Positions 15,332 through 58,422 of a stretch of 64,000 bases of DNA are shown in pieces. Every line of letters starts with the position of its first letter. Position 1 is the stretch's first letter. The notes under the pieces are model-generated. The model saw only the letters and a program-made list of their open reading frames with translations, did not search any database and was not told where the DNA came from. The stretch is taken from NCBI GenBank assembly GCA_947625025.1, contig CANQMQ010000007.1:14117-78116 (forward strand), written 5' to 3'. The translations under genes were made by a program, and so were the position numbers. The DNA comes from an uncultured Clostridia bacterium (lineage in GTDB: Bacteria > Bacillota > Clostridia > Christensenellales > Borkfalkiaceae).

Positions 15332-15412
15332 GTTCTCTCCCGCACCCCCTGTTCTATTATGATGCACTCTGCCTGTGATATTTGCACACTTGCATTCCTC
15401 TGACGCAATTTG

Positions 15413-28924: not shown

Positions 28925-31900
28925 CTATGAACCGCGCCGCACGTTGATTTGCCAATACTCGCCCTGCGTCGTGGTATAGCTCCCATCCTGCTCGGTGAGC
29001 AGGGAGACGGTGTAGATGGTGCCATCCTGTGCGGTGACCTTCCACACATTCTTACTCACCACATCAATGGACTTTATCGCAACGAAGGCGTAGTCGCCGT
29101 CGCTATCGGTGAGGGCAAGTGCGGCAAGGCTTACGGTTGTAGCGTCGCCGTTATGATCCACGAAGAAGTTTGCAAAGCAAGCGGCGTTTTCGAAGGTGCC
29201 GAGCGCCTGTTTTACCTCGTGTTCGGTGACCGTTGCCGTCTTTGTATCCCCCGCGGTAACTTTGATCTCATACAGCTTGCCGAGGTTGCCGCGGTCCTCC
29301 GCGACGTCGTAGTCTCCGAGTTCGAGCACCCAGCCGCTCGTGCCGTCCGCATTGACGAGGGCGTTGTAGGCATACACGACTTCCTTGTCCTCCCCTACTG
29401 TTTTGTAGAGGGTGTAGGCATACGGGGTGCCCTTTTTCACCCAATTCGGGAAGGTGTACCCCTCATCGGCGTAGTAGAAACTTGCGATGCCGACCTCGTA
29501 GCCGTTATTGGCGGAAACCTTCTCATACGTTGCCACCATGTACAGCCAATAGTCGCCATCGTACTTGTGATACTGCACGGTGTACTGCTTGTTGTTGTAA
29601 GTGAAGATCGCAGAGTAGCGGGGGCCCATCGAGGCATCGCTATAGAGCACTTCCTCGATCTTGGCATTTGTAAACGTCATGGTCTCGCTCCCCATATGCA
29701 GGGTGCCCGAAGCCGTAGTGGCGTTGATGCGGATGGGGCCGAAGCCGATGTAGTTCTCTACAATGAAGCTCCGCTGTGCCTCGGGCAAATCGTTCTCAAA
29801 GCCATCGTACATCTTCGTCTCCACGGTGCCGCCCGCAACGGTGATGGTGCTGCTGCCCTTCGGGTTATAGGTATAGGTGACGAAGGGTGAGTACTCATAG
29901 ATGACGGGGTTGTAGAGCGCGAGGCCATGCCGTGTGCCCGAACCATCGACATAGCTGTTGACGACCTGATAGCCGTTGTACGGCGTATTATCGATCTTAA
30001 GCGTCGCATTCGCGTAGAAGCGGGGCTCTCCATCGGGGGTGAAGGTGAGTGAAAGGGTGTATTCGGTATTCGCCCCCCCGTTCTGAATGGTAACCGTACC
30101 ATTGAAGGTGACACTCGTTCCCGCCGTCCATGCGTAGTAGGTGTTTTTCTCCACCACGCAATCGGTGCCCGCCGCGGGTGCGGCTGCGGTGATCTTCTCA
30201 TAGGAGCCCGTATCGGCATCCCCCGCATCCACATAGAGCACGAGGTTATTGCCGTCGATATAGTAGTACCCGTTCCTATCCGCATCCTCATCGGCGTAGT
30301 AGAGGTAGCCGCCGTTGTCGAAGATGAGCGGACGGAAGTTGCTATCGTAGAAGGAGCGCTGGGTGGAATACGTCTGCGGGCGGGTGAGGGTGTGGTTTTC
30401 CCCGTCGAGCTTGAAGTTGAGGTACTCAAAATCCTCGGTACGGAGGGAAATGAAGCCATCATCCGCATCCACGACGTCGTAGTAGACGGTGACGCCCGCA
30501 CTGCCGTCTGCGGCATAGTAGGTACCGCTGTCGAAGCCGTCTAAATAGAGCACCGACCAATCCGCTCCCACAAAGACGCCGCGGGCATTCTCATCGCATA
30601 CGACGAGCGCGCCCTCTCCATATGAATATGCGGCGACGTACGTGATATAATCTCCCTCGTCGATGGAGAGGAACATCTCTACTTCACGGGTCTCGACGTC
30701 GAGGACGTTGTATCTTCCGTCCCCGATCGTCCTGCCTGCCGAACTTGTATCCTTGACGATAATGTTACTGCGCCCATCGAATTGGAGATTGAGCCATTCG
30801 CCCTCGAGGAAGATGGGGAAGGTGCCCACGATGCCGTCCAACAGTTCGAAGGCAGTCCCGTCGAGGGAGAAGTAGAGATGGCTCCCGTCCTCCGCCTCAA
30901 AGACGAGGGCGTCTTCATCGATTGAATATTCCCCGCTTACGGGGCCGCGGGCGTTGGTGTACGTCGCGGAGCAGAATCCGTCCGTTTTCAGGGTATCGCT
31001 GCCCGCCGTGTACGTCTTATCGAAGCTCGCATTGTAGCGGGTGAATACGGTGACACGTACCCATTCCACCACATCGTAGTAATCGATTTCCCGAAGGGCT
31101 ATTTTTGCGGGCATGCCGCTCGGAGCCGTTGCACCCTCTTCGGGGACGAGGTTGTATACGGTAGCCCCCGAGGCCGCGGTGCCGTCCGCCACGAGGGTGC
31201 AGAGGACCTTGTCGTCCTGCGCCTCTTCGAAGCCGTTCTCCGACCAATACGCCTCATTCCCGCGCAATACGAGATGGGCGGTGGTGTCGAGCGACCCAAG
31301 CCCCTCGTATTCGAATACGGCGTACTCCTCTTCCTCGAGGAGCTCATAGTAGGTATGCGCACCGCTCCCATCCGTGGTGATCTCGAAGCAGAGCTCCTCC
31401 ACCGATTGATTGCTCCCCGTGCCCTTCACATAGAGGAAGTAGCCGTAGGTGCCGAAGATGGAGCGGGTGCGGAGGCCCGAGCGGTCGATGGAGAAACTGC
31501 CGAGGGTGGCGTTTCCGTTCTCATCGAAGTAGAGGGTGCCGATCCCCGAGACGGGCAATTCGACGAACCAAATGGTATTCTTGGGGGCGGAAGCATCGCC
31601 CGTATCCGTCTTTTTGTTGACGTCCGTGATCTCGGTGTAATTCTTTTCCGTTCTCGCACTGTTTCCCGTGCCGTAGGTGAACTCAAATACGTAGTAGAGT
31701 TCGCGGGTGAAATAGCTCGAATCGTAGGCGGAGGAGAGCATGAAGGTGATCTTCGAAGGGACATCCCCTTCCGTAACTTTGATTTGGGTGGCAACGAAGG
31801 TGCTGAGGGTCACTCCCCCGCCCTGCAGGGCAGTTTCGGTGTAGCACCCATCCGCCCCGACGGTGTAATTCAAAGGATCCTTCTCGTCCTGAAGGAGGAG

Positions 31901-33880
31901 CTCCGCCTTCTTCGCGCCCGTCACCCCCGATACGGTCACATCCGTATCGTAGAGGGCGAGCGTCATGGCGTAATCGAAGTTTTGGCTGATGGGGCTGAGC
32001 TGCACGTATTCGACGTGGCTCGCCTCCTCGGCGACCGTGAACGTCTTATTTGTCAAATCGATCTTGTAGCGGAGGACGGTCTCGGAAGCTCCCGTCTCCC
32101 CCGTTCTGAAGGTGCAGACGGCAAAGAATTCGCCGCGGGGCGACGCATCGATATAGTAGTAGCCCTGCTTGGAATTTTCGGTATGCGCGGGATCGGTATA
32201 GATGGCGCTATCGGGGAAGGCACGGTTACCATCGAGTTCGAGGGTCACATTCTCGCTGCCTTCGAGTTTATACGTCCCCCCTTCGGGTTTGGGTTCGATG
32301 TAGACGCTCGTCTCCGCATCGAAGGGAAGGGTGTAGAAGCGCATCACGAAGTGCCCATCTTCATCGACATCGTAGCCGAGCAGGTCCCTTGCCTGATTTA
32401 ACATATCGGTAAGGACGGCGTAGACCTTATACGCGATAATGGTTTCCCCCGTCAATGCGGAGAGCTCGTAGCCCTTATCCACGTAGTAGTGGCCTTCAAA
32501 GATATCGTAGAAGGTGATGTTGCCGTAGCCATCGAGCATGAGGCCGCCCTGCCCCAAGTTGCCCGAACTCCCGTCCCCCGTAAGGAACTCCGAATAGCGG
32601 TTGCCCTCTCCGATGGAGCTCGCATAGTAGTATTGGGAGCCGCTCGTCGAGGTTTGGAAGGTGAAACTGTTATTTTCGTTGTCCGTGCAGAGGAAGAGGT
32701 ACTCCGAGGAGGAGACTTCGCCGTCGATATCGACGGCGGCCCCGAGGAGCATGACGACGCCCTTATCGGTATGGGCCGCGTTCTTTTCATCCCGATAGCT
32801 GCGCGTTGCGGTGCCGTATTCATCGACGACGAGGGTATCCGTGGTGACGGCGGGGTAATCGCAGCTGCCCGTTTCGGGATTGAGATAGGTGCTCTTATAG
32901 ATATAGGTATGGGCGAGGTCGGGATTTTTGAAGGCGTAGGTGTAGTCCTCCTCGAAGATCTTTCCCTCGAGTTTGCTCTCATTGGGGAGGGTAAATGTGA
33001 TGCTATCCCCGGACATGGTACCCTCAAATTCCTTCATCCCCCTGCGGAGCAGCACAACGCCCTCCTGCCCTTCGGGGACGAAGATATAGCTCGTACTGCC
33101 GAAGCGGTCCATGTAGCCCTGCTGCCATTTGGCATACAGAATGTGCATGGAAGAATCCGAAATGACATCCCCGGGATGATAGACGACGGAGCCTCCGGGC
33201 GAGGCCGACCAACCGAGGAAGCGGTAGCCCTCCACCGAGAAGCCGTTTTCGGCTACGGTCATTTTGCCGCCCGCATCGGGGTAGGTGGGCGATACGGAGC
33301 CCTGCACGGTGGCGGAAGCATCGGGCGCATTGCCCTCATAGAGGAGCACGGCCGAGCTCGATGAGGCGCTGTAATACAGCTTCATCACGTTTTCGGAAGC
33401 GGTCGCAGAGAGCGCGGGAAGGCTCGCTACCGTCCCCGCACGGGTGGCATCATAGACGTACCCCGTGATCGCGGGCGGGGTAGCCGCAACCGCGGCCCCC
33501 ACGTAGTCGCTTCCCGTATACGAACGCTCGGCATCGGGCACCGTGGCATTCCCGAGGTAGACCTCCACCGTGTAGCCCACCTTGTATTTCGCCGTGAGCG
33601 TCATGGGGGCGGCGGGCATCGTCTTATCGGAGGCGAGTTCGGCGTTGCCATCGAACCATGCCCCGAAGGTGAGCCCCGATTTTTGGGGTACGAGGTCCTT
33701 CACGGCATCCGAAATATTTGCCCCCTCCTCGAGTTCGAGGGAGGAAACGGAGAGCGTACCGCCATCCAAATCGAGGGAGAGGGTGTACGTCTTGCCCTTA
33801 TTGCATGCCGCGAACACGGCAACGCACAGCGTGACTACGAGCAAGGGCAAAAGATAGAATGCCTTACGGATAGATTTCAT
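28925..33880 (-). CDS. 1651-aa surface lipoprotein with N-terminal InlB B-repeat modules
   Basis: Lipobox VAVFAAC. Includes YTLSLDLDGG...GLTFGAWFDG...LTAKY and a second B-repeat (GYRFLGWSA...LYAKW). The long Y/T/G/D-rich remainder is not recognised. Confidence 0.85.
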   Translation of the reverse strand: MKSIRKAFYLLPLLVVTLCVAVFAACNKGKTYTLSLDLDGGTLSVSSLELEEGANISDAVKDLVPQKSGLTFGAWFDGNAELASDKTMPAAPMTLTAKYKVGYTVEVYLGNATVPDAERSYTGSDYVGAAVAATPPAITGYVYDATRAGTVASLPALSATASENVMKLYYSASSSSAVLLYEGNAPDASATVQGSVSPTYPDAGGKMTVAENGFSVEGYRFLGWSASPGGSVVYHPGDVISDSSMHILYAKWQQGYMDRFGSTSYIFVPEGQEGVVLLRRGMKEFEGTMSGDSITFTLPNESKLEGKIFEEDYTYAFKNPDLAHTYIYKSTYLNPETGSCDYPAVTTDTLVVDEYGTATRSYRDEKNAAHTDKGVVMLLGAAVDIDGEVSSSEYLFLCTDNENNSFTFQTSTSGSQYYYASSIGEGNRYSEFLTGDGSSGNLGQGGLMLDGYGNITFYDIFEGHYYVDKGYELSALTGETIIAYKVYAVLTDMLNQARDLLGYDVDEDGHFVMRFYTLPFDAETSVYIEPKPEGGTYKLEGSENVTLELDGNRAFPDSAIYTDPAHTENSKQGYYYIDASPRGEFFAVCTFRTGETGASETVLRYKIDLTNKTFTVAEEASHVEYVQLSPISQNFDYAMTLALYDTDVTVSGVTGAKKAELLLQDEKDPLNYTVGADGCYTETALQGGGVTLSTFVATQIKVTEGDVPSKITFMLSSAYDSSYFTRELYYVFEFTYGTGNSARTEKNYTEITDVNKKTDTGDASAPKNTIWFVELPVSGIGTLYFDENGNATLGSFSIDRSGLRTRSIFGTYGYFLYVKGTGSNQSVEELCFEITTDGSGAHTYYELLEEEEYAVFEYEGLGSLDTTAHLVLRGNEAYWSENGFEEAQDDKVLCTLVADGTAASGATVYNLVPEEGATAPSGMPAKIALREIDYYDVVEWVRVTVFTRYNASFDKTYTAGSDTLKTDGFCSATYTNARGPVSGEYSIDEDALVFEAEDGSHLYFSLDGTAFELLDGIVGTFPIFLEGEWLNLQFDGRSNIIVKDTSSAGRTIGDGRYNVLDVETREVEMFLSIDEGDYITYVAAYSYGEGALVVCDENARGVFVGADWSVLYLDGFDSGTYYAADGSAGVTVYYDVVDADDGFISLRTEDFEYLNFKLDGENHTLTRPQTYSTQRSFYDSNFRPLIFDNGGYLYYADEDADRNGYYYIDGNNLVLYVDAGDADTGSYEKITAAAPAAGTDCVVEKNTYYAWTAGTSVTFNGTVTIQNGGANTEYTLSLTFTPDGEPRFYANATLKIDNTPYNGYQVVNSYVDGSGTRHGLALYNPVIYEYSPFVTYTYNPKGSSTITVAGGTVETKMYDGFENDLPEAQRSFIVENYIGFGPIRINATTASGTLHMGSETMTFTNAKIEEVLYSDASMGPRYSAIFTYNNKQYTVQYHKYDGDYWLYMVATYEKVSANNGYEVGIASFYYADEGYTFPNWVKKGTPYAYTLYKTVGEDKEVVYAYNALVNADGTSGWVLELGDYDVAEDRGNLGKLYEIKVTAGDTKTATVTEHEVKQALGTFENAACFANFFVDHNGDATTVSLAALALTDSDGDYAFVAIKSIDVVSKNVWKVTAQDGTIYTVSLLTEQDGSYTTTQGEYWQINVRRGS

Positions 33881-34000: not shown

Positions 34001-35566
34001 TTACTTTTCAAAAACAATGCGGGTGCCGTTGCCGTCGAGGGAGAATTCCCATTCGGGGGTGCCTTCGGGCGGAACTTCGCCCTCGCCCTCCCAATTCTCC
34101 CAAATGTTCATGTAGGCAAGGACGTAAATACTGCCGCGCACGGAAACGAGGTAGGAATACCCGTTCACGGCATCGCTCTTCACATCGACCACGGTAACCG
34201 CGTCGCTTCCCCAAGTGATGCCCGCGGCCGAAACGTGCAAATCGTTTGCGGTGCCCGTAGTTTCCTTCGGGTGCCAATCGCCATAGAGGGCGGCGTTTAC
34301 GGTTACGGCGGGAATGCCGCTCTTCACATAATAGGTGTATTCGATGTGGGTAATACGGCCCTCTTCATCATAAATGTTGTGTTCGAGCGCCAAGACGTAA
34401 TCCGAAGAGGTGTGCATCTTCACTTCGTACGTCACATCCCCGAGCTTCACATTGAAGGAGTATTCCACTTGCCCTCTTGCTGTGATGGCGGTATTATCAT
34501 ACTTGAAGGAAGTTTCGTCGATGGTGATGTGGTGGGCGCCGTCGAGGCTATCCCATGTGCCGCGGAAGAATTCGGCGAAGGTATACGTCCGCGCTTCATC
34601 CTTCCAATAGTTCTCGGCATCGATGGTGGGGCAGGGCCCGCCCTCCCCCTCTTCGGGGTACCATGCGAGGAAGAATGCCCCGTCATCGGTGAAGAAGTAG
34701 TAGACATGGGAGGCGATATTGCCGTTCCAACCGTCCTCGGTGTGTTCTTTGTAACCCAAATCGACGACGCACCACGCCTCTTTGCCGTTGTAGGTGATAT
34801 CGTTCCCATTTATCTTGAGCTCGATCTCGTTGCGCTTCATGTCTACCCAATCCCCCGTGAAGTGCTCCTCCACGGTGACATCGGCGATGGGGTCCAAAAT
34901 GAAGTAATCGGGGGCCTCATCCGAATCGGGATCCGCATTCGAGAGTTTGATGACGTACCCCACCGAATAGTAATAATGGAGCCACGAGATGGTGTAACTC
35001 TTTTCCTTCCAGGTGAAGGTATAGCTCTGCTCACTGGAAGAGCCGTTGGGGCGGACCTCCTCGATCCCCACATCCCCGATCGCCATCTTGGTCTCGGAGA
35101 TATAGAGGGACGTCGTGCCGTCTGCGGAGATCCACGTGCCGCGGAAGTTGCGGTCGAACTTCTTGGTGCCGATGGGCAGCCCCTTCACTGCGGGAAGGTC
35201 CGCCTCCTTCAAGTGGAAGCTCGCCTTCACGGTGGCATGTTCCGCATAGTCGAAGGTGAGGGCGCCATCGGTCGCCTTCAAGACCTCATCGTTCAGGGTG
35301 ACGCTGCCCACTTCGTAGCCCTCATCGGGCTTGGGGGTGACGGTCACCTTCTCCCCTACGGCATACGAGGTGCCGTTTGCGGGGGCAGAGACCTCCACCT
35401 TGCCGTGCGCGGCATCGTACTCCGAGAGGGAGACGGTAACGGAATTCGTGGGGCCGGTGGGCTCAGTGGGCTCTGTAGGCTCCTTGGGCTTGCACGCCGC
35501 GAGGCCGCACGTGAGAAGGAGGGTAGCGCAAAGAAGTGCGCAAACTTTCCTGAAAATACCTTTCAT
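34001..35566 (-). CDS. 521-aa lipoprotein (divergent InlB B-repeat + repeated G[TD]W domains)
   Basis: Lipobox TCGLAAC. VTVSL..YD.A.GKVEVS...Y.VGEKVTVTPKPDEGYEV module. Repeated FRGTW/FTGDW/LYGDW units. Start at MKGIFRK (35566). Confidence 0.8.
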   Translation of the reverse strand: MKGIFRKVCALLCATLLLTCGLAACKPKEPTEPTEPTGPTNSVTVSLSEYDAAHGKVEVSAPANGTSYAVGEKVTVTPKPDEGYEVGSVTLNDEVLKATDGALTFDYAEHATVKASFHLKEADLPAVKGLPIGTKKFDRNFRGTWISADGTTSLYISETKMAIGDVGIEEVRPNGSSSEQSYTFTWKEKSYTISWLHYYYSVGYVIKLSNADPDSDEAPDYFILDPIADVTVEEHFTGDWVDMKRNEIELKINGNDITYNGKEAWCVVDLGYKEHTEDGWNGNIASHVYYFFTDDGAFFLAWYPEEGEGGPCPTIDAENYWKDEARTYTFAEFFRGTWDSLDGAHHITIDETSFKYDNTAITARGQVEYSFNVKLGDVTYEVKMHTSSDYVLALEHNIYDEEGRITHIEYTYYVKSGIPAVTVNAALYGDWHPKETTGTANDLHVSAAGITWGSDAVTVVDVKSDAVNGYSYLVSVRGSIYVLAYMNIWENWEGEGEVPPEGTPEWEFSLDGNGTRIVFEK

Positions 35567-35678
35567 CGTTACTCCTTGCCGAACTTTGCTTCGGCGAATT
35601 ATCCGCAAAGACACGGCGCATGAAAACAGCCCCGTGTCTTTTCAGTTGGTTGTTTGTTCTTTTGGCGCCTACGCTAAC

Positions 35679-38068
35679 TTACACGGCAGGCTCCGTGGGT
35701 GCAGGCTCTTGAGGTGTGGTCTCCGCAGGCGTCCCCAAGGAATAGGTCTGAGGGTCATATCCATTATCCAATACGATGTTGCCGTCGGAGACACTCAACG
35801 TATAACGGGAGCCGTTGATATAGACGATATAGGAATCCGTTCCGGTTGCGGCAACATATACGTCTTTCTCTGCTAATACGGGTTCAAAGGTCTCAGGATC
35901 AAAATCCGATGCCATTGCCTTGATACCGTCCGCAGAGACGACAATGCTATTGAATGTACCACCTTCCGCAGTATAGGTACCGTTTGTAAGGCCCGTAGGC
36001 GTGGAGAGTTTCGTCAATGTTTTCGTAAATACATAAATCGTAACGGGCTCGGCATCCGTTTCCGCATCACCGGCATCGGGCGATTCGGGACCAACTTCTG
36101 CCGCAGGATCGAATCCGCCACCTTCATCCGTATTGAAGAATTTACCGACATTGATCTCAATTTTCAGTTTATCGGGGATTAGCTGATAGGGGGGGTCATC
36201 GTTATACACAGAGCTAATGCTGAATCTATCGATTATCGATTTTTCACCCTTCGTAATTACTACCGTGACACTAACACCGCCTTCGCACGTTACGCCAATG
36301 AGGCGCAGTGTGTATCCTTCGCTGTTGTTCCAAGTGATAGTGCCATTTTCGGCAACGGCAAATGTAGCATTCTTCTCGCCCGTCCAAGTGCCAACCAAAT
36401 CGGCGGGAATTTCGCCAACTTCACTTGCCGTGTAGCGAAGGTCGCCCGAATCGTCTGCGGCAGTCAAAACGAAGTAGCTCTTATCGCCCCACATAAAGTC
36501 AAAGCTGTACAACTTCGAGTTGTGGAAAATCCAATACCTTTCGCCGTCGGAGTATGCCGCAACGTCTGTACTGTTGAGCGTCATTTTTCCGTCCTTGCTC
36601 AATACGAGCGTCTCTTGATTATCTAATCCGCTATAGGTGCCTTCCGCATAATAGAAATCATCAGTAATGACATCGCCATTGCCCTTGACAAAGACGTAGG
36701 TCGTTTTACCCTCTCCGGTTGCCACGACAAGTTGGAATGCGTTCGCCTCGGCGTTATACGTAATGCTTTCGGCTCCATCTATATCGAAGTTGATTTCATA
36801 AGACGTGGACTGCTCTTTTGCGTTTACGAGCGGATAGTTCTGATTTTTCCATGTCACCTTATCGGCGGCAACCGTAAACGTTTCGGAAGAATCTGCAATG
36901 TTCTTCCATTCGCCGATGAATCCCCATTCGGTGGGAATGCTTGTAAGCGCATAATCGACGTAGATGTAAGTATCGTGCCGAATCGTAAACGTATAGCTAT
37001 TCTGTTCATCAAGGGATACGATTTCACCTTCAACTTGGACGGACACAACAACATAGCCGCTGTTCGCCGTAACCGTGATGGTGACTTCCTCTCCCGATTC
37101 GTAGGCATCCTTTTCGGGACTAATCGTCACGGTGCCCATCGTGTCGTCCTCAGGAAGCTCAACCGTATAGGTGATGGGGCCTGCATTCTCAGGACGGAAG
37201 TAATATTGTTCGATGTAGAACGACTTAATAAGGCTTATATCATCTTCGGTAATCGTAATTTCCCAATCGTCAGCGCCGTTTACTCTTACACCATAGTGTT
37301 CCTCACCGCCATCCCATTTTTCGATCTTTTCAATTTCATTCTCTCCCCAAAACACACCAATAGGGCAAACGACAATTGAAGGAACGTCGGGATCGGGCTG
37401 ATCATCGCTATAACAGATATACGTTCCATAATATGCTTCATCAAGGATGAGCGCGTTCGTGCTCGCGGCCTGATATTTGAACGTAGCGGCAATGGTCGTG
37501 TTGGCGGTGACGGTCAGGCTATACGTATTGTCAGCCGTCAGCGTCTTTTCGGCGCCGTCTACCTTGAAACTATCCAAAACCTTGAGCACGTCGGGGGTAA
37601 CCGTTACGGTGACTACCGTATCCTTATTATACGTATATACGTTCCCGTTCTTGGTCCCTTCGGGAGACAAGGAGACCTCACCCCCCCCGTGGTGGAAACC
37701 GTAACCGTGAAGGTAGCGGGAGTGGGCGCGGGCGTATTCGCGGTGAACGTTGCCTTGAGGGTGGTGTTGCCCTGCACCTTGAAGGTATACTTGCCCTCGG
37801 TGAGCTGTGCGGCCGTATCGTTCACGGTGAAGGTGTTGAGGGTGTAACCCGTCTTTGCGGTGACGGTGGCGGTGACTTCCTCATCCTTCACATAGCCCTC
37901 TTTGGCCTTCGGGGCCGTCACTGTGATCTCGCCCTGTGCGGCTTCGCAGACCGTATCTATCTTGTAATAATCGGTCTCAAGCAGGGTGCATGCGGCGATG
38001 CCGAGCGCCGCTACCACGATAAGGAGCGCGGATAAGACCGTAACAAGAATTTTCCTGTACTTACTCAT
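35679..38068 (-). pseudogene. lipoprotein gene split by a frameshift in a G8 tract (pieces 38068..37613 and 37670..35679)
   Basis: The 5' piece has a GGAGG RBS, lipobox LGIAAC and one B-repeat module. The 3' piece continues the same architecture in a frame offset by 2. One extra G gives a 796-codon ORF. Confidence 0.8.
37681..37688. repeat. homopolymer C8 (+ strand) / G8 (coding strand)
   Basis: Read directly and confirmed by the track translation TTGGVRS (ACC ACG GGG GGG GTG AGG). Confidence 0.9.
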
Positions 38069-38130
38069 AAGAACCTCCAAAATATTTTTACAAAACCCAT
38101 ACAAAACGCAGTATGTTCGTTTTCCATTCT

Positions 38131-38160
38131 ATTCTATCATAGTGATTCGCATTTTGGCAA
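38131..38160 (-). promoter_or_regulatory. extended -10 promoter of the frameshifted lipoprotein gene
   Basis: Minus strand reads TTGCCA-18 nt-(TGA)TAGAAT. Confidence 0.5.
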
Positions 38161-38305
38161 CCGATTTTCTGCAATTTTTCCCGTTTTGTGGGTTTCGAAT
38201 TTTGAATATACCCTATAAGCATTGCTTATACCACAACGATTTTTGGCCAAAAAAGCCCAAAAATTGCCATTTTTTGGGGATTTTAGGATGAGGCAGGTCC
38301 AAATG

Positions 38306-38331
38306 AAAAAGCCTGCCGAGGGGCAGGCTTT
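38306..38331 (-). terminator. intrinsic terminator
   Basis: Minus strand reads AAGCCTGCC-CCTC-GGCAGGCTT followed by TTTTT. Confidence 0.8.
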
Positions 38332-38346
38332 GAAGATCCATATCCG

Positions 38347-39861
38347 TTACCGCTTGCGGGCGGGGAGAAGGGCGGGAAGAGAAGTGGCCGCCGTCGGGGC
38401 GTACTTTGCGAAGATGGCCTCGAATTGTGCCTGCGAATATTCCACGTCCTCGTAATCGTTGCGGTTGACGAGCGCACCCGCGTGGATCTCGCTCACCACC
38501 CCTTCACGGTCTATGACCACGGTGGAGGGGTTGCCCGAGAGCCCGAACTTGGTGCCAAGCCCTTCGTAATCGGAGACGATATAGAAGCTCAACCGGTGGC
38601 TGTTCGCGTAGGCTACGATGTCCGCCTCGCTGTCCTCCTCCATATTCCGAAGGCTTCCATCGCAAACGGCGATGATGGCGATGTCGTTTTTATACTTCTG
38701 ATACGCCGCCTCCATGCCCGGGAATTCGTATTCACAGAAGGTGCACTGCGTATCCCAGAAGTTGAGCACGACCGCCTTGTAGGTGGTAAGCAGGGTGGAG
38801 AGGCGGATGGTTTGGGAAGTTTGGGCGTTGGTTGCGAGGGTGGTGTATGAGAAGTCGTACATCACGGAGCACTTCGAATAGCTCACCTTCTCGGGCGCCG
38901 TCCCCGTGCGGAGCGCACCCGTCAGGGTGAGGTTGCAGGTGGGATTTTGGTAGCTCACCGTATACTCCGCCTGTGCGGTGTAGCCATCGGGCACCTTGGT
39001 GAGCCTTACCGTGTAGCTCTTGGGCGCGAGGGCGGCATTCGCCTTGCCGTTGCGGAAGGTGAGCTTGCCAATTTCGCTCGAGCCGTCGTATACCGTCCCC
39101 TCGATGTCAGCAAACGGGATGAGGTCTCCGTTGGTGCGCACGAGGCGGAAGATATATTGAATAGGCGTCCCCTCTTCGAGCTTGGGAATTTCGGAGACGT
39201 CCGTCTTGGCATCGCAGCGGGTGCAGTGCTTGGAGCGGCTTCCCGCCGCTTCGAAGGTGGCGGGCGTATCGATGGTGTACGTCGTCTCGTAGTCGTGCCC
39301 CAAGGCGGGGATCTCTATTGCATCGCTTTCTTTTTGGCAATTCTTGCACTGTCCCGAAGCGATGCCCGCTTCCGTACACGTTGCCTCCTCCAAAACCGAT
39401 TGGATTTGCCAATTGTGCCCGAGGGCGGGGATGATGTTGTGATACTCCTGCCCGCACACCGAGCACAGGGCTATCTCTTCGCCGTCCGTCTCGCACTTGG
39501 CTGCCCGCACGGGGCGCACGAGCTTTTCACGGGTATGCCCCTTGGCGGGAACTTGGTTGGTCGTCTGATAGGTGCAACGGCTGCACTTCACCGTCTCGGT
39601 GCCTGGCTCCGTGCAGGTGGCAGTGGAAGAGATCACCTGAAGGTCGTGCCCCAAGGCGGGGATCTCACGGGTCTCCTCCTCTCCGCACGAGCAGGTGCGC
39701 TTCTCCTCCCCCTTCTCCGTGCAGGTGGCGGGGGTTACGGTCTGCCAATCCGAAAATTCATGGGTATGGTCTTTGTCTTTGCAGGCGGCGAGCAGGGCAA
39801 GGCACAGGAGCAAGAGGGTGCCGAGCGTTGCCAAAAGGGCTGTTCTTATACGGGTTTTCAT
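38347..39861 (-). CDS. 504-aa lipoprotein: five Cys-triad repeats + Ig-like module + C-terminal TlpA/redoxin (thioredoxin-fold) domain
   Basis: Lipobox ALLAAC. Five units of ATCTE.G.....C..C.......IPALGH. C-terminus VVLNFWDTQCTFCEYEFP...GNPSTVVIDREG. Confidence 0.8.
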   Translation of the reverse strand: MKTRIRTALLATLGTLLLLCLALLAACKDKDHTHEFSDWQTVTPATCTEKGEEKRTCSCGEEETREIPALGHDLQVISSTATCTEPGTETVKCSRCTYQTTNQVPAKGHTREKLVRPVRAAKCETDGEEIALCSVCGQEYHNIIPALGHNWQIQSVLEEATCTEAGIASGQCKNCQKESDAIEIPALGHDYETTYTIDTPATFEAAGSRSKHCTRCDAKTDVSEIPKLEEGTPIQYIFRLVRTNGDLIPFADIEGTVYDGSSEIGKLTFRNGKANAALAPKSYTVRLTKVPDGYTAQAEYTVSYQNPTCNLTLTGALRTGTAPEKVSYSKCSVMYDFSYTTLATNAQTSQTIRLSTLLTTYKAVVLNFWDTQCTFCEYEFPGMEAAYQKYKNDIAIIAVCDGSLRNMEEDSEADIVAYANSHRLSFYIVSDYEGLGTKFGLSGNPSTVVIDREGVVSEIHAGALVNRNDYEDVEYSQAQFEAIFAKYAPTAATSLPALLPARKR

Positions 39862-41057: not shown

Positions 41058-41759
41058 TTATTCCTTACGGGGGTCGATGTACTTCACCGCACCCTGTTCT
41101 TCCGAGAATCTGCCGTAGTGGCCGAGCGCCTTCTCCCATGCCTCGTTGGGGGTGAGCCCCTTCTTGACGAAATCGGTCATTTTGCCGAGGGAGACGAATT
41201 CGTAACCAATTACCTGGCTATCCTTATCGAGGGCGAGGCGGGTGACATACCCCTCCGCCATCTCGAGATAGCGCACGCCTTTGGCGGCGGTGCCGTACAT
41301 GGTGCCCACCTGCGAGCGGAGCCCCTTGCCGAGGTCCTCAAGGCCTGCACCTACCACGAGCCCGTCGTCCGAGAAGGCGGATTGCGTTCTTCCGTATACG
41401 ATCTGAAGGAAGAGTTCGCGCATCGCGGTGTTGATCGCATCGCAGACGAGGTCGGTGTTGAGCGCTTCGAGAATGGTCTTGTGGGGAAGAATTTCCGCCG
41501 CCATCGCCGCAGAATGGGTCATGCCCGAGCAGCCGATGGTCTCAACGAGCGCTTCCTGAATGACGCCGCCCTTGACGTTGAGGGTGAGCTTGCAGGCGCC
41601 CTGTTGGGGAGCGCACCAGCCCACGCCGTGGGTAAAGCCGCTGATGTCCGTGATCTGCTTTGCGCACACCCATTTCCCCTCTTCGGGAATGGGGGCGGGG
41701 TCGTGTCTCGGACCCTTCGCAACGCAAATCATCTCTTCCACTTCGCGTGAATATTGCAT
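41058..41759 (-). CDS. NifU/IscU-like scaffold-domain protein with extra C-terminal domain
   Basis: 233 aa. GWCAPQQGACKLTL, TIGCSGMTHSAAMAAE and LVCDAI resemble the three-Cys IscU layout. 11-nt gap to the GGGtGRT gene. Confidence 0.65.
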   Translation of the reverse strand: MQYSREVEEMICVAKGPRHDPAPIPEEGKWVCAKQITDISGFTHGVGWCAPQQGACKLTLNVKGGVIQEALVETIGCSGMTHSAAMAAEILPHKTILEALNTDLVCDAINTAMRELFLQIVYGRTQSAFSDDGLVVGAGLEDLGKGLRSQVGTMYGTAAKGVRYLEMAEGYVTRLALDKDSQVIGYEFVSLGKMTDFVKKGLTPNEAWEKALGHYGRFSEEQGAVKYIDPRKE

Positions 41760-42009: not shown

Positions 42010-42014
42010 ATTTA

Positions 42015-42047
42015 GGAAAAGGCACCCGTGCGGAGCACGGATGCCTT
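42015..42047 (-). terminator. intrinsic terminator
   Basis: Minus strand reads AAGGCATCCGTG-CTCCG-CACGGGTGCCTT followed by TTCC. Confidence 0.7.
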
Positions 42048-42067
42048 AGACTTTGTATACAATAATA

Positions 42068-42997
42068 TTACTCTGCAGTGTTGCCGCTTGCGGGAGGCGT
42101 ACCCTTCTTGAATTCGAACATATCCGCATCCCCCGCACCGGTAAGGGCAAGGATGCCGTATTCCGTCTTTACAAAAACGTACTGCACCGCTCCTTCCGCC
42201 ATGGCGACCGCATAGGCGCCCGTATAGAGGAGGGTGAATTCGCCCGTCATGCCGCCGCTGAGCGTCGCGGCCTTGCCGCTGATGTGGAGCGTATCGGTCG
42301 TCGTTCCTTCTTCCTGCATCCAATAGTCGCCGTCGATGTTGACATTTTCGGGCAGGGGCTGATACGTCATGGGATATCGATCTCCGCCTGCCTGTGACGG
42401 GGTGACGAACGTGAGCGTCTTATCCGTTTCGCTCCATATGAGTTTGACGCCGTTGAAATCATAGGTACCGGGTGTATTCGCGTCTTCCACTGCAACAGCA
42501 CAATCTCCCATTTGCAGAGGTTTCGCGGAGGGATTCGTTTCACCCGGCTTCATGGTTCCCACCATTGTTACCAAAATACCCGTATCGCCCGTATCCTCGG
42601 TGATGGTGAGCTCATACGTAACTGTGCCGGGTTGGTTTGCGCTGCCGATTTCTACGTCACACGTCCATACACCGTAGAGCTGAGGCTGAACTTCCCACTG
42701 CGCCTTCAACGTGACGTTCTTCGCGGGCATTTTGAAAGTGGCGCCTGCGGCGATGTCGGTTGTGCCGTCGTTCCACTTCGTGAAGGCATACCCTGTGCGG
42801 GTGAAGGTGGTGGCGGGCTTTACGGTGACCGTTGCCCCCTCCTCGTAACTTTCGACTGCGGGAGCGGTCCCCGTGCCGCCGTTGGCTTCGTAGGTGACCG
42901 TGTACTTGACGGGTTCCTCGTCGCCGCCGCATGCCGCGAGGGCGCAGAGCGAGACTGCCATGAGCGCCGCCAATACGGCGCTGATGAATTTCTTCAT
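42068..42997 (-). CDS. 309-aa lipoprotein with InlB B-repeat module
   Basis: Lipobox CALAAC. YTVTYEANGGTGTAP...GYAFTKWNDG...VTLKAQWE. GGAGG RBS at MKKFISA (42997). Confidence 0.8.
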   Translation of the reverse strand: MKKFISAVLAALMAVSLCALAACGGDEEPVKYTVTYEANGGTGTAPAVESYEEGATVTVKPATTFTRTGYAFTKWNDGTTDIAAGATFKMPAKNVTLKAQWEVQPQLYGVWTCDVEIGSANQPGTVTYELTITEDTGDTGILVTMVGTMKPGETNPSAKPLQMGDCAVAVEDANTPGTYDFNGVKLIWSETDKTLTFVTPSQAGGDRYPMTYQPLPENVNIDGDYWMQEEGTTTDTLHISGKAATLSGGMTGEFTLLYTGAYAVAMAEGAVQYVFVKTEYGILALTGAGDADMFEFKKGTPPASGNTAE

Positions 42998-43040
42998 ACT
43001 ATCCTCCAAACTGTGATTTTGGCCTTTAGGCCTGACTTCT

Positions 43041-43067
43041 ATTATATCACCCCCCCCCGTTTGTCAA
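43041..43067 (-). promoter_or_regulatory. promoter whose spacer consists mostly of a G9 tract
   Basis: Minus strand reads TTGACA-AAC-G9-TGA-TATAAT, a 15-nt spacer with an extended -10 TGn. C9 at 43050..43058 is confirmed by the track translation (ITPPR = atc acc ccc ccc cgt). Confidence 0.55.
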
Positions 43068-43125
43068 GCACTTTAACCATGTTTTTGGAAATTTTCGGAA
43101 AATTTTTTTGGAATAAAAAAATCGC

Positions 43126-43268
43126 CCCCTCCTCTCACTACGTTACTTCGCCCTGCGGGCTCGTGTCACGCTTAGAAGTAACAGAAGCCTCGCGTGTGCG
43201 GGATGAGGGGATGGGGCGGGTCATGATGAGAAGGGAGCTGTCATTTCGAGCTTGCCGAGAAATCTCAT
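43126..43268. repeat. modular palindromic repeat locus R5
   Basis: S4 variant (GTTACTTCGCCCTGCGGGCTCGTGTCACGCTTAGAAGTAAC...), G-rich S5, and a short S1 (GTCATTTCGAGCTTGCCGAGAAATCTC). Abuts the yhbY stop codon. Confidence 0.85.
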
Positions 43269-45033: not shown

Positions 45034-46002
45034 TCAACTATTTGTCTGTTGGGAAATCTCCTTGTATTCGTTACGGTACTCATCCTTGACAAGGGACTCA
45101 CCGTATACGGCGTCGTGGGCGGCCTGCTGCAGGATCTTTGCCTGCTCAGCCGTTACCGCGGACGGCATATAAGTTACGCCGATGGGCGACTTGCCGAAGA
45201 TGGTAGCATAGTGACAGAGGGCGGCAAGATACGTTCCCGCCATGGACGGGTGGTACTTATCGGGGGAGTAGAGCTCAATTTCGGGATGCTCCCCGTGGAC
45301 GATGTAGAATGCGGCCCCCGCAGGGGAAACGGGAATGGAGAGCTTTTCGCCGAAGGCCTCATAGATCGCCGCCATCCTCTGGAAGTGCTCTTCATATTCA
45401 AGGTTGTTCGCCGCCAACTCGGGGCAATCCTCCCTGTAGGCCCACGTCATGTAGAGGACGGGGTGCGCATCCGATTCGGTGACGAGTTTCTTCAGGGCAA
45501 CGGCCGAATTATAGAAGGAATGCCAATCGAGGGCGGGGGCGAGGCACTTATCCTGCATAAAGACAAAGTCGTAACTCTTCGTGGCAAGCTTTTCGGCTAC
45601 GGCCTGGCCGTAAATCGTGGAAGTATCCAAGAATACATCGAGCGGGGAGGTCGCTTTGGTCACCTGATCAACGGCAACGTTTGTGTACCCCTCTCCCCTT
45701 GCCACATTCTTGAACTGCGTCCAGAGCTCATTGACAAAGGTGAAACTGTTGCCCAAGAAGAGGAAAGAGTAGCTCTTATTTGTGGGCATCTCTACGCCGA
45801 GCGCGCCGAGGTAACCGTCGCGGTAGCTATCCCCGCAACTGCAGGAGTGCTCTACACAGCCCTGTACTCCCTTTGCAGGGGCGATAACGGTAGTTTTATC
45901 GTAATTATGCTCATGCGGCTCCTCTCCGCCGCCCCCGCCTCCGCAACCGCAGAGGGCGAGGCAACACGCGAGCGCGATTCCCATCACCAATTTCCCTTTC
46001 AT
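45034..46002 (-). CDS. SGNH/GDSL-type hydrolase-like lipoprotein (DUF4886-like)
   Basis: Lipobox LALCGC. One degenerate Cys-triad unit (HNYD...CVEHSCSCGDSY). FLFLGNSFT block I and a later DKYHPS. Confidence 0.6.
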   Translation of the reverse strand: MKGKLVMGIALACCLALCGCGGGGGGEEPHEHNYDKTTVIAPAKGVQGCVEHSCSCGDSYRDGYLGALGVEMPTNKSYSFLFLGNSFTFVNELWTQFKNVARGEGYTNVAVDQVTKATSPLDVFLDTSTIYGQAVAEKLATKSYDFVFMQDKCLAPALDWHSFYNSAVALKKLVTESDAHPVLYMTWAYREDCPELAANNLEYEEHFQRMAAIYEAFGEKLSIPVSPAGAAFYIVHGEHPEIELYSPDKYHPSMAGTYLAALCHYATIFGKSPIGVTYMPSAVTAEQAKILQQAAHDAVYGESLVKDEYRNEYKEISQQTNS

Positions 46003-50861: not shown

Positions 50862-52169
50862 TTACCCCCCCCCGTGCGGGTTCGGGTTTTCCACATCGCT
50901 CTGCTTGGTGCGGGAGAGGGCGAGGCGGTAGATCTCTTCGGTGGCGTAGGAGATCTTGGTGAGCTGATCGCGTAGCCCTACGGGGTGCAGCCAATAGCTA
51001 TCCTCCACCGTAGAGATATCGATGCAGTCCCCGAATACGTTCTCCCTGTACTTCTTCTTGCGGAAGGGGTAATCGTATTCGATGTGTACGCTCTCGAGCT
51101 CGGTCCCCGCCCAAGTGAGGGTTACGGGTTTTCCGTATGCCGTGCAGGTGAGGGTGGTCCCCTCGATGCTCTGGGTGAGCCTGCCCCTGCCCTGATCGCA
51201 GAACTTCTTTGCATTGGGGAGGGTGTGCACGGTGACTTCGCAGTCCAAGAAATACTGCCCGCTCTCCACTTCCCTTCTTACATTCTCCCGTTCCCACTTC
51301 GCCCAATCGGGGATATAGCGGAACTCGGTCTCCCCGTCCTCTGCGGAGAGTTCGGAGAGCTCGCTCATCGTCCATACCTTTCCGCATGCGGCGCACCGGA
51401 GTTTTGTGCCCTCCGAGTGCATCTCGAACTCCTTCTTGCAGTGCGGGCACTGATAGAGGAGGCTGTGCAGCCCGTCCGCGCGGTGCGGGCTTCTAAGGCG
51501 GATGCCGTATTCCCGCTGATAGGCGTAATCATCCCGCTGCAACTTGCTCTGGATACGGGCATCGAGCTCTGCCGTGGAGAGCGTCTGCGTCTCCTCCGCG
51601 GTGGCGATACATTCAAGCTCCGCCCTTAAGGGGATGTTCTGCTCGGGCTTATTCCACTGCGGGGCGGCGATGAAGGTGCCGTACATCCGAAGCGCCACGA
51701 CGGGCACTTTGAGGAGCCTGCACATCTTGGCAACCGCTTCGGGAATATAGGACGTGGTGCCATCCAAGGAGTAGCGGGCTTCGGGATACATACACACGAT
51801 GCTCCCGTATCGATCGACGCAGTGCTTCATGTTGCGGACGAGGCGCAAGTCCTTCACAAACTTTCTCGTGCAGATACAGCCGAGGCTGCGCATGAGGCCG
51901 TCCCCCACGTCCCTGACGGCATCGATCGCAACGACGTTGTTGGCATTGTGCGGGGAGACCGCGACGTACATGAGCGGGAAATCCAACATGCTCGCATGGG
52001 TCGCAAGCAAAAAATAGGGCGGTTTGATGCCGTCCATTCCCATCTTTACCACCGTGGTTTTCTTGCCGCGGAGGCGGGGGTAGATCGCAAGGAGCCGCGC
52101 AAGCATCATCAGAAAGGGGTTTGCCCTGCGCGGTTTGCGTGAAAAATCGTAGTGCCGTATTTCTTTCAT
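50862..52169 (-). CDS. lysophospholipid (PlsC-family) acyltransferase with C-terminal zinc-ribbon-containing domain
   Basis: HxxxxD box THASMLD, then YPEARYS. CPHCKKEF...LRCAACG ribbon. The gene ends ...PHGGG on a G9 tract. Confidence 0.7.
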   Translation of the reverse strand: MKEIRHYDFSRKPRRANPFLMMLARLLAIYPRLRGKKTTVVKMGMDGIKPPYFLLATHASMLDFPLMYVAVSPHNANNVVAIDAVRDVGDGLMRSLGCICTRKFVKDLRLVRNMKHCVDRYGSIVCMYPEARYSLDGTTSYIPEAVAKMCRLLKVPVVALRMYGTFIAAPQWNKPEQNIPLRAELECIATAEETQTLSTAELDARIQSKLQRDDYAYQREYGIRLRSPHRADGLHSLLYQCPHCKKEFEMHSEGTKLRCAACGKVWTMSELSELSAEDGETEFRYIPDWAKWERENVRREVESGQYFLDCEVTVHTLPNAKKFCDQGRGRLTQSIEGTTLTCTAYGKPVTLTWAGTELESVHIEYDYPFRKKKYRENVFGDCIDISTVEDSYWLHPVGLRDQLTKISYATEEIYRLALSRTKQSDVENPNPHGGG

Positions 52170-56442: not shown

Positions 56443-58413
56443 TTACCGCAGGTAACTGCCGTTGGCGCTCTGCTGTACGCGGAAGATGCGCACCTCTTCC
56501 CCCGTTTCGGCATCGAGGTAGACGATATACTCATCCTCGCCGTAGGTGCAGGCAAATTCGTAGGCGAGCGTCTCCCTGCCGTTCACCGCAATGAGGGCGC
56601 GGTTTACGGCATACGGCGTGAGCCCTTCGGAGAGCATTCCACGGGCCTCCCTTTCAGACATGCCCCCTTCAAATTCATGCTCCCCGTTGTTGAGAAGGTA
56701 TTCCCGCGCATCCATGCCAATGACTCTTCCCTTCTCTTCGCAGACGCGCACGCGGATCATTTCGGGGTATACGCGCACGCCGCCTTGTACCGTCGTGTAG
56801 GTGAGGTTTGCTACCATCCCCGCATCGGAGAGCCATACGGCCTCCACGTCCTCGATCCCGAGGGTAGAGAGGTATTCGCGGGCAATGGCATCGCAGGTAT
56901 CAAGGTCGAAATTCTTGGTGTTGCACTCCTCGTAGGTATCGAAGAAGGCGAGTTTTGCACCGCTTTTTGTGATTTCGGCGAAGATCTCCACGTCGTTTTC
57001 ATCGGTGAGCACGAAGTTGTAGCACTGCATATCGGCGGCAAGCGTCTCGCCCGTGTACTTCACTTCGCGGACATGGTATGCCGCAAAGTACTCCTTGGCC
57101 GCCTGTTCGGCCTGAGAGGAGGTCACCTCTTCGAGCCCCGTGAGGCGGTTTTCGCCCACGTTGCCCTCTCCCGTAAACGGGGCATCCGTAATTTCCTCCT
57201 TGAGGCTTCCGCCCATTTCGCCGAAGAGCTCCGAGATGGCGCCCTGCCCTCCCGAGACGAACTCCTTGAATTCCCCCGCATCGAGGTGGGTGGCGAGCTC
57301 ATTGAGCTTCTCGTAGATCTTGCCGTTGTTTTCGTAGATGGTGAGAAGCTGTTCCTTTTCGGAAGAAGTGAGCGCGTTGCCGCGGTTTACCTTGTCGAGC
57401 AGGGTACGGGCGTACTCCCCCGTTTTATTCACAAAGGAAGAGAGGCTTGCACCCGCTTCGAAGCCCACGGGCATGCGCTCGAGGGCGCTCTCCATGAGGG
57501 CAGACTGCACCACGATGTCGGTGAGAAGCGTCCTCTGCTCCCCCACTCCCGAAGAGATGCGGAGCTTGCCCAAATCGTCGTCGAGGCTCTCCCCCGTGGA
57601 GACGAGTTCGTAGAAGGTATTTCTGTACCCGCCGTCCGCTTCGATGTTCATCTCGTTCATGCGGAAGGCGCCCGCGGTGACGATGGCGCCGAGCACGAGG
57701 CAGGCGGTCCCGAGCGAAATGACTGCCGCAAGCCAACCGCCGAAGCCGGGGGTACGGCGCTCCGCCTTTCTCTCCCGCTTCTCACGGCGTTCGGCCCGCT
57801 TCTGTGCCCGATGCTGATTGCGGGCCTTTCTACGCTCAGACTGCGCCTTCTCCCGTGCCGCCGCCCGCTGACGCTTTAAGGCTGCACGATCCTTCTTCTC
57901 ACGGGCAATGCGCTTCTCGCGCTCCGCCTTCGTCTCATTCTTCAGAAGCTCCCTTCTCGCCGTACGCTCTGCGCGGCGCTCGGCCCTGCGTTCCCTGTGA
58001 TCCGCTCTTCTCTTCTCTTTGGCGGCGATACGGTCTGCCTTCTTCTTGGCAAGCAGTTCCTTCCGTGCAAGTTTCTTTTCGGCGACGGCCTGCTTCTTTT
58101 GGAGCTTCTTCTCCTTGAGGGCGGCCCTCTTTTCGACTTTCGCCTGCTTCAGAGAAGTTTTCTTCTCGAGCTTCTGCTTCTTCTTTTCTGCCCGCACTTC
58201 GGCCGCCTTCACCCGCCTATCCGCCGCGACTTCCTCACGGAGCTCCGCGGTGTTCTTGGTCTTGGGCTTTTGCACTTTTTGGGTGGTTTTCTTTGCCGTG
58301 GTCTTTTTCCCCTCCTTCTTGGGGGCGGGGTCTACCGATTGCTGCGTATATTCTTCGATGCGCTCCACCTTCTTGGCGCCGCTCGATACATTCTTACCCG
58401 TTTCTTTCTTCAT
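56443..58413 (-). CDS. ypeB: germination protein YpeB-like with a 220-aa K/R/E/A-rich N-terminal extension
   Basis: Directly downstream of sleB. One TM helix (GFGGWLAAVISLGTACLVLGAIV). C-terminal PepSY-like repeats. Strong AAGGAGG RBS. Confidence 0.65.
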   Translation of the reverse strand: MKKETGKNVSSGAKKVERIEEYTQQSVDPAPKKEGKKTTAKKTTQKVQKPKTKNTAELREEVAADRRVKAAEVRAEKKKQKLEKKTSLKQAKVEKRAALKEKKLQKKQAVAEKKLARKELLAKKKADRIAAKEKRRADHRERRAERRAERTARRELLKNETKAEREKRIAREKKDRAALKRQRAAAREKAQSERRKARNQHRAQKRAERREKRERKAERRTPGFGGWLAAVISLGTACLVLGAIVTAGAFRMNEMNIEADGGYRNTFYELVSTGESLDDDLGKLRISSGVGEQRTLLTDIVVQSALMESALERMPVGFEAGASLSSFVNKTGEYARTLLDKVNRGNALTSSEKEQLLTIYENNGKIYEKLNELATHLDAGEFKEFVSGGQGAISELFGEMGGSLKEEITDAPFTGEGNVGENRLTGLEEVTSSQAEQAAKEYFAAYHVREVKYTGETLAADMQCYNFVLTDENDVEIFAEITKSGAKLAFFDTYEECNTKNFDLDTCDAIAREYLSTLGIEDVEAVWLSDAGMVANLTYTTVQGGVRVYPEMIRVRVCEEKGRVIGMDAREYLLNNGEHEFEGGMSEREARGMLSEGLTPYAVNRALIAVNGRETLAYEFACTYGEDEYIVYLDAETGEEVRIFRVQQSANGSYLR

Positions 58414-58422
58414 ATCTCCTCC

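Follow-up and report, generated by a model that had tools for sequence, protein, structure and literature searches.

In the spirochaete pathogen Treponema pallidum, the gene of the OmpW homologue tp0126 carries a poly-G tract between the -35 and -10 elements of its promoter and is transcribed optimally at a total spacing of 17 nucleotides (nt), and tprL keeps a modal tract of 9 G in all strains, with 7-11 G as minority variants that are visible at the fragment or read level (bioRxiv 10.1101/2020.09.28.316414; PMC7864442). A comparable arrangement is described here for a 64-kb stretch of DNA (64,000 nt, hereafter the window) from an uncultured Clostridia bacterium, in which the minus-strand promoter at 43041-43067 holds nine consecutive G residues (G9) in its spacer and precedes a gene for a lipoprotein with an InlB B-repeat. 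As at tp0126 and the tpr genes, the poly-G lies within a sigma-70-type promoter of a surface-protein gene. Unlike in T. pallidum, where both the heterogeneity and its effect on a reporter were measured, the tract is known here from consensus sequence alone, and each copy of it gives a spacing below the 17-nt optimum. If this tract acts as a switch, the mechanism would be of a known kind, a homopolymer in a promoter spacer, and a lipoprotein with an InlB B-repeat would by analogy be the usual kind of target. New, if real, would be the host, an uncultured spore-forming lineage of gut Clostridia, the Vlp-like architecture of the gene family, and the recurrence of an identical promoter core at an unrelated gene.

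The Vlp lipoproteins of Mycoplasma hyorhinis (Yogev et al. 1991; Citti and Wise 1995) reportedly combine a conserved 5' promoter with a homopolymer in its spacer, a conserved prolipoprotein signal peptide and divergent mature regions. The Vlp genes are said to switch independently, to carry poly(A) as the tract, to lie in a cluster and to contain size-variable tandem repeats in the mature regions. The present family has the same layout, in that its members begin with a common promoter and signal peptide and diverge in the mature protein. It differs from the Vlp system in its poly(G) tract, in its dispersed copies and in having no long coding tandem repeats, and any switching would be putative.

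In Neisseria, the promoters of porA, opc and fetA carry a run of G or C in the spacer, and this homopolymer grades the expression of outer-surface proteins through the spacing and facing of the -35 and -10 elements (PMC5320596). Within the Firmicutes, the T-tract of the Spy1336/R28-Spy1337 intergenic region in Streptococcus pyogenes M28 gives three transcript states at 9T, 10T and 11T (PMC7098570), which resembles the present proposal in that a 1-nt change of an intergenic homopolymer acts at a surface-protein gene. Clostridia are known to vary phase by means of invertible promoters (invertons), which in Clostridioides difficile and in Bacteroides turn surface and signalling genes ON and OFF stochastically (PMC11868660). 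The G9 locus would work by a different mechanism, and an inverton reading of it was rejected: convincing flanking inverted repeats are lacking at the locus, where the best flanking inverted pair (25 nt, 76% complementary) is 380 nt apart and lies within coding sequences on both sides, and no site-specific recombinase was found among the neighbouring genes.

Anatomy and spacing of the promoter

Direct reading of the minus-strand promoter region, gtgcTTGACAaacGGGGGGGGGtgaTATAATagaagtc, and a hexamer scan confirmed the sigma-A-type promoter elements that an earlier note on this DNA had called. The -35 hexamer is a perfect TTGACA (43062-43067), the same in all six promoters of the family described below, and the -10 hexamer is a perfect TATAAT (43041-43046), likewise invariant across the family. 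Between them lies a 15-nt spacer, AAC-GGGGGGGGG-TGA (43061-43047 on the minus strand), most of which is the G9 homopolymer at 43058-43050 (C9 on the plus strand), a candidate slippage tract, and the TG of an extended -10 element follows at 43048-43049. The hexamers therefore agree in full with the canonical sigma-A/sigma-70 promoter (12/12, plus TG), whereas the spacer falls outside the canonical 17 +/- 1 nt. The addition of one or two G would bring the spacing to 16 or 17 nt, as the earlier note had proposed.

To place this spacing in context, both strands of the window were scanned for hexamer pairs separated by 13-21 nt. Six matches of 12/12 were returned, five with a 17-nt spacer and the G9 promoter with 15 nt. 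Among the 11/12 matches, seven had a 17-nt spacer and one had 18, and an extra match at a spacer of 20 proved to be an alternative alignment of a 17-nt site. The other promoters of the window with at least 11 of 12 matching positions thus have 17-nt spacers in 12 of 13 cases and an 18-nt spacer in the remaining one, which bears out the earlier statement that 17 nt is the rule with a single 18. In twenty Markov-simulated windows a 12/12 match never occurred, and 11/12 matches averaged about 0.1 per spacer length, indicating that the hexamers did not arise by chance and that the 15-nt spacing is a true outlier. In representative genomes of GTDB, 14 unrelated promoters share the -35 context GCTTGACAAACGGGG...GATATAAT, and their spacers measure 17 nt in all but one, which has 18. 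Judged by these patterns, the sigma-A spacing of the clade is sharply 17 nt, and the G9-spacer site is a real sigma-A-type promoter.

An identical 30-nt core, TGCTTGACAAAC-G9-TGATATAAT, with the same 15-nt spacer and unrelated flanks, was found at 943-972 of contig L019 (CALVWN010000013.1), from the Clostridia metagenome-assembled genome (MAG) E27__bin11. It is one of 15 matches to a deliberately loose promoter pattern in GTDB, and it lies between a phosphoenolpyruvate carboxykinase gene and a gene for a polytopic membrane protein of 437 amino acids (aa) that has no match in Pfam or NCBIfam. A chance find of another kind was made at 6896-6926 of L016 (CALVUC010000001.1, Clostridia MAG BRZ_EC__bin58), where TTGACA-G9-TATGGTGA-TATAAT has the optimal 17-nt spacer. 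The open reading frame behind it (...WGSFIEHMGRAVYDGIYEP...) is one that we take by eye to be similar to an alpha-L-arabinofuranosidase of glycoside hydrolase family 51; Pfam gave no match for the 50-aa fragment.

Upstream of the promoter, the obg-yhbY unit (both genes assigned by Pfam) ends in an intrinsic terminator at 43115-43218 (minus strand), which RNA folding shows as a long G+C hairpin with the stem CGCCCC...GGGGGCG followed by AUUUUUUUA, a U7 run in the transcript (z = -2.5). This terminator insulates the lipoprotein gene from read-through, and the gene therefore depends on the G9-spacer promoter, the only promoter evident for it. Three phased A/T-tract repeats of the type ATTTCCAAAAA, spaced 10-12 nt apart (43082-43114, minus strand), adjoin the -35 hexamer on its upstream side. 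All family members share this sequence from about 43100 on, and its likeness to an UP element or to curved DNA suggests that it may function as such.

Transcription is predicted to start at about 43033-43035, so placing a small hairpin, GGCC-TAAA-GGCC (43021-43032, minus strand), at the 5' end of the mRNA, where it might have a stabilising role. In the alignment the stem is preserved in the related contigs L001 and L002 through a C-to-T change that yields a G-U pair. The ribosome-binding site GGAGGA (43002-43007, minus strand), invariant across the family, stands 34 nt downstream of the -10 element, and the ATG start codon is at 42997. An Rfam search of the leader returned no riboswitch or other RNA element. 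A sigma-D-type promoter with GGTGATAT as its -10 element was also considered and ruled out by eye, there being no TAAA at the required distance of 15 nt.

The lipoprotein family and its shared 5' module

The gene behind the promoter (42068-42997, minus strand) encodes a 309-aa protein with the N-terminus MKKFISAVLAALMAVSLCALAAC, in which the signal-peptide region (nt 42929-42997) ends in the lipobox LAAC with the acceptor Cys23. One Flg_new/InlB B-repeat spans residues 32-100, so that the assignment of the product as a lipoprotein in the earlier note is well founded, and the protein is a surface lipoprotein. The AlphaFold model (mean predicted local distance difference test score, pLDDT, 77) consists of the InlB B-repeat and, C-terminal to it, some 200 aa of all-beta structure. 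Foldseek matched the B-repeat to PDB 2y5p with a probability of 1.0 and gave weak lipocalin-like matches only for the C-terminal region, which is also the part that varies among family members.

Full-length relatives are few: among 5.8 billion protein clusters only four were found (89, 76, 58 and 58% identity), plus one 99% variant. The corresponding contigs (L001-L004 and L023) and the other comparison contigs have a coverage of about 2.5-3x and come from samples ERZ27248994, ERZ27249265, ERZ27249481, ERZ27249483, SRR27728187 and ERR14656751. Altogether, six family promoters from at least five samples or assemblies could be compared, representing about three independent lineages; L001 and L002 are close to each other, and the comparisons are not fully independent.

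The family contigs align to the window from about 43137 to about 42014 only, and the blastn end points of L001-L004 thereby delimit a duplicated cassette (42014-43137, minus strand) that runs from the promoter to a terminator-like hairpin at its 3' end (42022-42038, minus strand). Sliding-identity analysis showed that the 5' 250-450 nt or so of the family genes retain 92-100% identity, also in the two relatives with only 58% protein identity. This part comprises the A-tracts (from about 43100), the core promoter, the 5' untranslated region (5'UTR) and the DNA for the signal peptide and the InlB repeat, and a 41-nt stretch of signal-peptide DNA shows zero changes. In the C-terminal two-thirds of the genes, DNA identity drops to 30-70%. 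Such a near-identical 5' module joined to divergent C-termini suggests concerted evolution of the module. In the alignments the family thus has the Vlp-like layout, and its common promoter module drives at least three divergent members. Size-variable tandem repeats were not found in the mature region of the protein alignment, where only a short D/K linker differs in length. This linker follows the lipobox Cys (window 42905-42925) and reads GDEEP, GDADKDP, GDDDKDKDKDKEP or GDDDKDKDKGNNIEP, the variants of the window, L003, L004 and L023 being encoded by imperfect GAC/GAT-AAG repeats.

The genomic contexts of the copies differ. In the window the cassette is flanked by yhbY upstream and a gene for a 233-aa protein downstream, in L004 by clpX upstream and an ABC (ATP-binding cassette) ATPase gene downstream, and in L003 by unrelated genes on either side. 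L003 and L004 share samples (ERZ27249265 and ERZ27248994) and a coverage of about 2.6x with contigs that are 98-100% identical to the window, and on account of these common samples and equal coverage they are presumably, though not provably, dispersed paralogues in the same genome as the window. L023 is of the L004 type, with the clpX-side flank and 5' module, at 100% identity up to about 42850 and of the window type at 100% beyond; given its 2.5x coverage, the assembly probably joined two copies wrongly through the module that they share, and a true recombinant is less likely.

In sister species (Obg 86-87% identical; the nearest Obg relative is 87% identical), different genes occupy the slot between yhbY and the 233-aa/GGGtGRT genes: L024 (6634-8063), L026 (6832-9727) and L027 (2477-5372) hold either a PAD_porph enzyme or an HTH_26 regulator together with a 716-aa LRR_5 surface protein. 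The presence of other genes in this position indicates that the cassette is an insertion or duplication unit, and the position behind yhbY is a variable surface-gene slot. Exact-protein look-ups with the window lipoprotein, YhbY and the 233-aa neighbour gave no match, hence no second strain was found for the exact promoter locus. A protein-based scan of GTDB genomes yielded no relative of the lipoprotein, and zero matches came from IMG/VR and from JGI metagenomes, the latter searched once for the promoter pattern and once for the DNA of the signal peptide. The family seems to be rare and confined to a few animal-gut data sets.

Slippage, fixed strength or conditional control

As a whole, the locus is best explained as a lipoprotein gene cassette that is self-contained and has its own functional promoter of the sigma-A type. 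Whether this promoter is slippage-tunable, low by default and a source of transcriptional phase or rheostat variation is a more tentative matter, and we regard it as a real possibility rather than as a probable one; a promoter that is fixed and weak, or sensitive to DNA twist, is about equally likely. According to the slippage proposal, all elements are consensus, yet the hexamers stand 15 bp apart, and RNA polymerase would engage them poorly, giving a low default output, since the other strong promoters have 17 bp. A gain of one or two G through replication slippage would widen the spacer to 16 or 17 bp and raise expression, while the loss of G would lower it still further. A large dynamic range might be expected at 16-17 bp because every other element is already consensus. 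G9 would then be the state favoured in most cells, with longer tracts as minority subpopulations, and independent slippage at each copy would diversify the surface lipoprotein repertoire. For this proposal three steps would each have to hold: activity in this organism would have to be low at 15 bp, the promoter G9 tract would have to slip, and slippage would have to alter expression.

Several findings speak for a switch. Anatomically, a homopolymer of at least about 8 nt between the -35 and -10 elements is the hallmark of such promoters, and G9 has this length and position. The G9 core is kept in five of the six family promoters despite a mature-protein identity as low as 58% and differing contexts, which may be taken in favour of a switch, as may the identical core ahead of the unrelated membrane-protein gene in L019. 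An unstable homopolymer also exists at another contingency-type gene of the window. The second InlB-repeat lipoprotein gene (35679-38068, minus strand), 5 kb away, carries in its 5' part the G8 tract at 37681-37688 (minus strand) that the earlier note had read as a frameshift, and the tract is indeed there: with G8 the product is 151 aa, and with G9, G6 or G12 it is 796-797 aa, in line with the 796-aa member of its protein cluster. When the repaired 796-aa sequence was searched for homologues, this cluster member (P0034) was the only close orthologue. Comparison of window 35361-38795 with L022 (ERZ27249483) revealed zero mismatches over 3,436 bp and a single extra G, the tract being G9 at L022 1108-1116. 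Poly-G length has therefore changed in this organism at least once, in a single case at about 3x coverage, and the G8/G9 coding tract is a candidate translational ON/OFF switch.

Against these stand a number of observations on the promoter tract itself. The window, L002, L003 and L023 all have G9 followed by TGA and a 15-nt spacer; L004 has G7TG followed by TGA, again with 15 nt, so that the interruption leaves the length unchanged; L001 has G9 followed by TCGA and a spacer of 16 nt, the inserted C lying outside the G run and abolishing the extended -10 TG. The spacer is hence 15 nt in five of six promoters and 16 nt in one, no length variant of the tract occurs in the six family consensus sequences or in the unrelated L019, and a 17-nt spacer is absent among the family promoters, all copies of which sit at the presumed low setting. 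Established switches of the promoter-spacer kind typically vary in tract length from strain to strain, as those of Neisseria do (fetA C10-C14) (PMC5320596), unlike the tracts of the present family, in which five of six are G9 and the sixth is G7TG and whose host belongs to a Gram-positive-type spore-forming Clostridia lineage. Lineages 10-16% apart in DNA retain exactly G9, and paralogues may have been homogenised by gene conversion and would then not be independent observations. The changes in L004 and L001 fit selection on spacing or strength better than selection on mutability. Spacer columns are less variable than those of the 5'UTR (2/16 vs 11/33), a difference that is not significant (p = 0.17), and for this reason no claim of selection on the purity of the run is made. 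An extended -10 promoter may, moreover, be reasonably active even at 15 bp. Finally, the window (56.7% G+C) shows no surplus of long G/C runs such as would point to a poly-G strategy across the genome: it has 3 runs of at least 8 and 2 of at least 9, at or below the 4.6-6.1 and 1.35-2.0 expected under Markov models of order 1-4. What is notable about G9 is its location inside the spacer rather than its existence.

The earlier note had named invariance of the tract across strains as a finding that would tell against its proposal, and at the level of consensus sequences the outcome falls on that negative side, with no difference in length between strains or copies. The idea is not refuted by a constant length at the consensus level, because tprL of T. 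pallidum likewise keeps a modal G9 and its variants are only a minority. As to the broader suggestion of poly-G-based variation of the lipoprotein repertoire, the part that stands is the coding tract, G8 in the window and G9 in L022; the constant promoter tract and the lack of enrichment of long runs do not bear it out.

The constancy just described is what would be expected of a fixed weak promoter, a reading that we consider possible though somewhat doubtful, in which a stable 15-bp spacing was selected for low-to-moderate constitutive expression, the extended -10 element and A-tracts do most of the work and the G run is filler. Tract and spacing are alike in all relatives, L004 breaks the run without altering its length, and the extra base of L001 coincides with loss of the TG, which looks like compensation that holds strength. 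With the base composition of the window, chance alone should produce about 1.4-2 G9 runs in 64 kb, and 15 bp lies inside the natural range of sigma-70 spacers (PMC8695583). This account nevertheless has to accept a pure 9-nt homopolymer in a 15-nt spacer, which we estimate at about 4e-5 per promoter at the local G+C content of 48%, and the finding of the same core, unchanged, before an unrelated gene of a different MAG (L019). A hypermutable run would also be a liability where length must stay fixed, the more so in an organism in which a G8/G9 change has been seen, and weak expression could have been obtained through hexamer mismatches, as the other strong promoters keep 17 or 18 nt.

A suboptimal spacing is an established sensor of DNA twist. 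The promoter might accordingly be of fixed length and condition-dependent, its short, G+C-rich spacer (12/15) misaligning the hexamers until a change in twist or supercoiling, or an activator that binds or deforms the G tract, realigns them, which seems unlikely to us. The retention of the AAC-G9-TGA core in the family and its identity at an unrelated gene would fit a protein-binding or structural role, and G+C-rich spacers raise the dependence of synthetic sigma-70 promoters on negative supercoiling (PMC8695583). On the other hand, no regulator gene is linked to the lipoprotein cassette, whose contexts differ, and a repeat search of the locus found no dyad or repeat around the G9 tract that would suggest an operator. 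The classic realigning activators, those of the MerR type, act on over-long rather than short spacers, which counts against an activator.

Under-calling of a true G10 or G11 tract, with an ordinary spacer of 16-17 nt, would make the outlier an artefact of error-prone homopolymers at a comparison coverage of about 2.5-3x, but this is very improbable. Separate data sets agree on G9, namely an NCBI MAG, three SPAdes contigs of ENA and two Logan contigs, the runs behind them being different. No other gene of the window is interrupted at a homopolymer, and where strains could be compared (about 11 kb, from L020, L021, L022 and the 3' portion of L023), G8/G9 is the sole indel, next to nine substitutions. 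General homopolymer sequencing error is therefore unlikely as well, even at a coverage of about 3x.

Returning to the slippage-tunable promoter, a tract that slips and tunes transcription would represent a second, inverton-independent form of stochastic surface variation in gut Clostridia, with a bearing on the escape of commensals from phages and from immunity (immunoglobulin A), and pipelines now used to find invertons would miss it. With its common promoter and signal peptide, the family of divergent lipoproteins would then offer a compact model of combinatorial surface variation in a Gram-positive anaerobe. Should the tract be fixed, the locus is still a useful natural case of an otherwise all-consensus promoter at 15-bp spacing. 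A bolder extension, which we hold to be rather unlikely, is that TTGACAAAC-G9-TGATATAAT is a recurrent and possibly portable slippage-switchable promoter of gut Clostridia, with a dispersed lipoprotein family whose 5' module is kept uniform by gene conversion and with recruitment of the core by unrelated envelope genes of other genera. If so, the Mycoplasma Vlp system would have a counterpart in a Gram-positive commensal, in which exposed domains diversify while the 5' module (promoter, 5'UTR, signal peptide and InlB repeat) stays uniform, and this would be the first simple-sequence-repeat transcriptional phase variation described in uncultured gut Clostridia, for which invertible promoters are the only known kind.

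Other observations in the window

The region is rich in surface proteins. InlB B-repeat (Flg_new/Flg_new_2) genes number five in the 64 kb, all on the minus strand (28925-33880, 34001-35614, 35679-38068, 42068-42997 and 61487-63997), and further lipoproteins are encoded at 38347-39861 (thioredoxin-like), 45034-46002 (DUF4886) and 11447-15367. A third long run, G9 at 50865-50873 (minus strand), forms the last three Gly codons before the TAA stop of a 435-aa acyltransferase/zinc-ribbon protein (50862-52169). With G8 or G10 the stop would be lost and tails of 27 or 58 aa added (462 or 493 aa), which may represent a "C-terminal" form of phase variation or may be due to chance.

Seven of the nine substitutions that separate the window from the 99.8%-identical L020 are clustered within 58 nt (41139-41196), inside the gene for the 233-aa NifU-like protein, and resemble a short recombination tract. 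YpeB and SleB-type spore-cortex lytic genes are present at 56443-59163 (minus strand), and the organism is presumably an endospore former.

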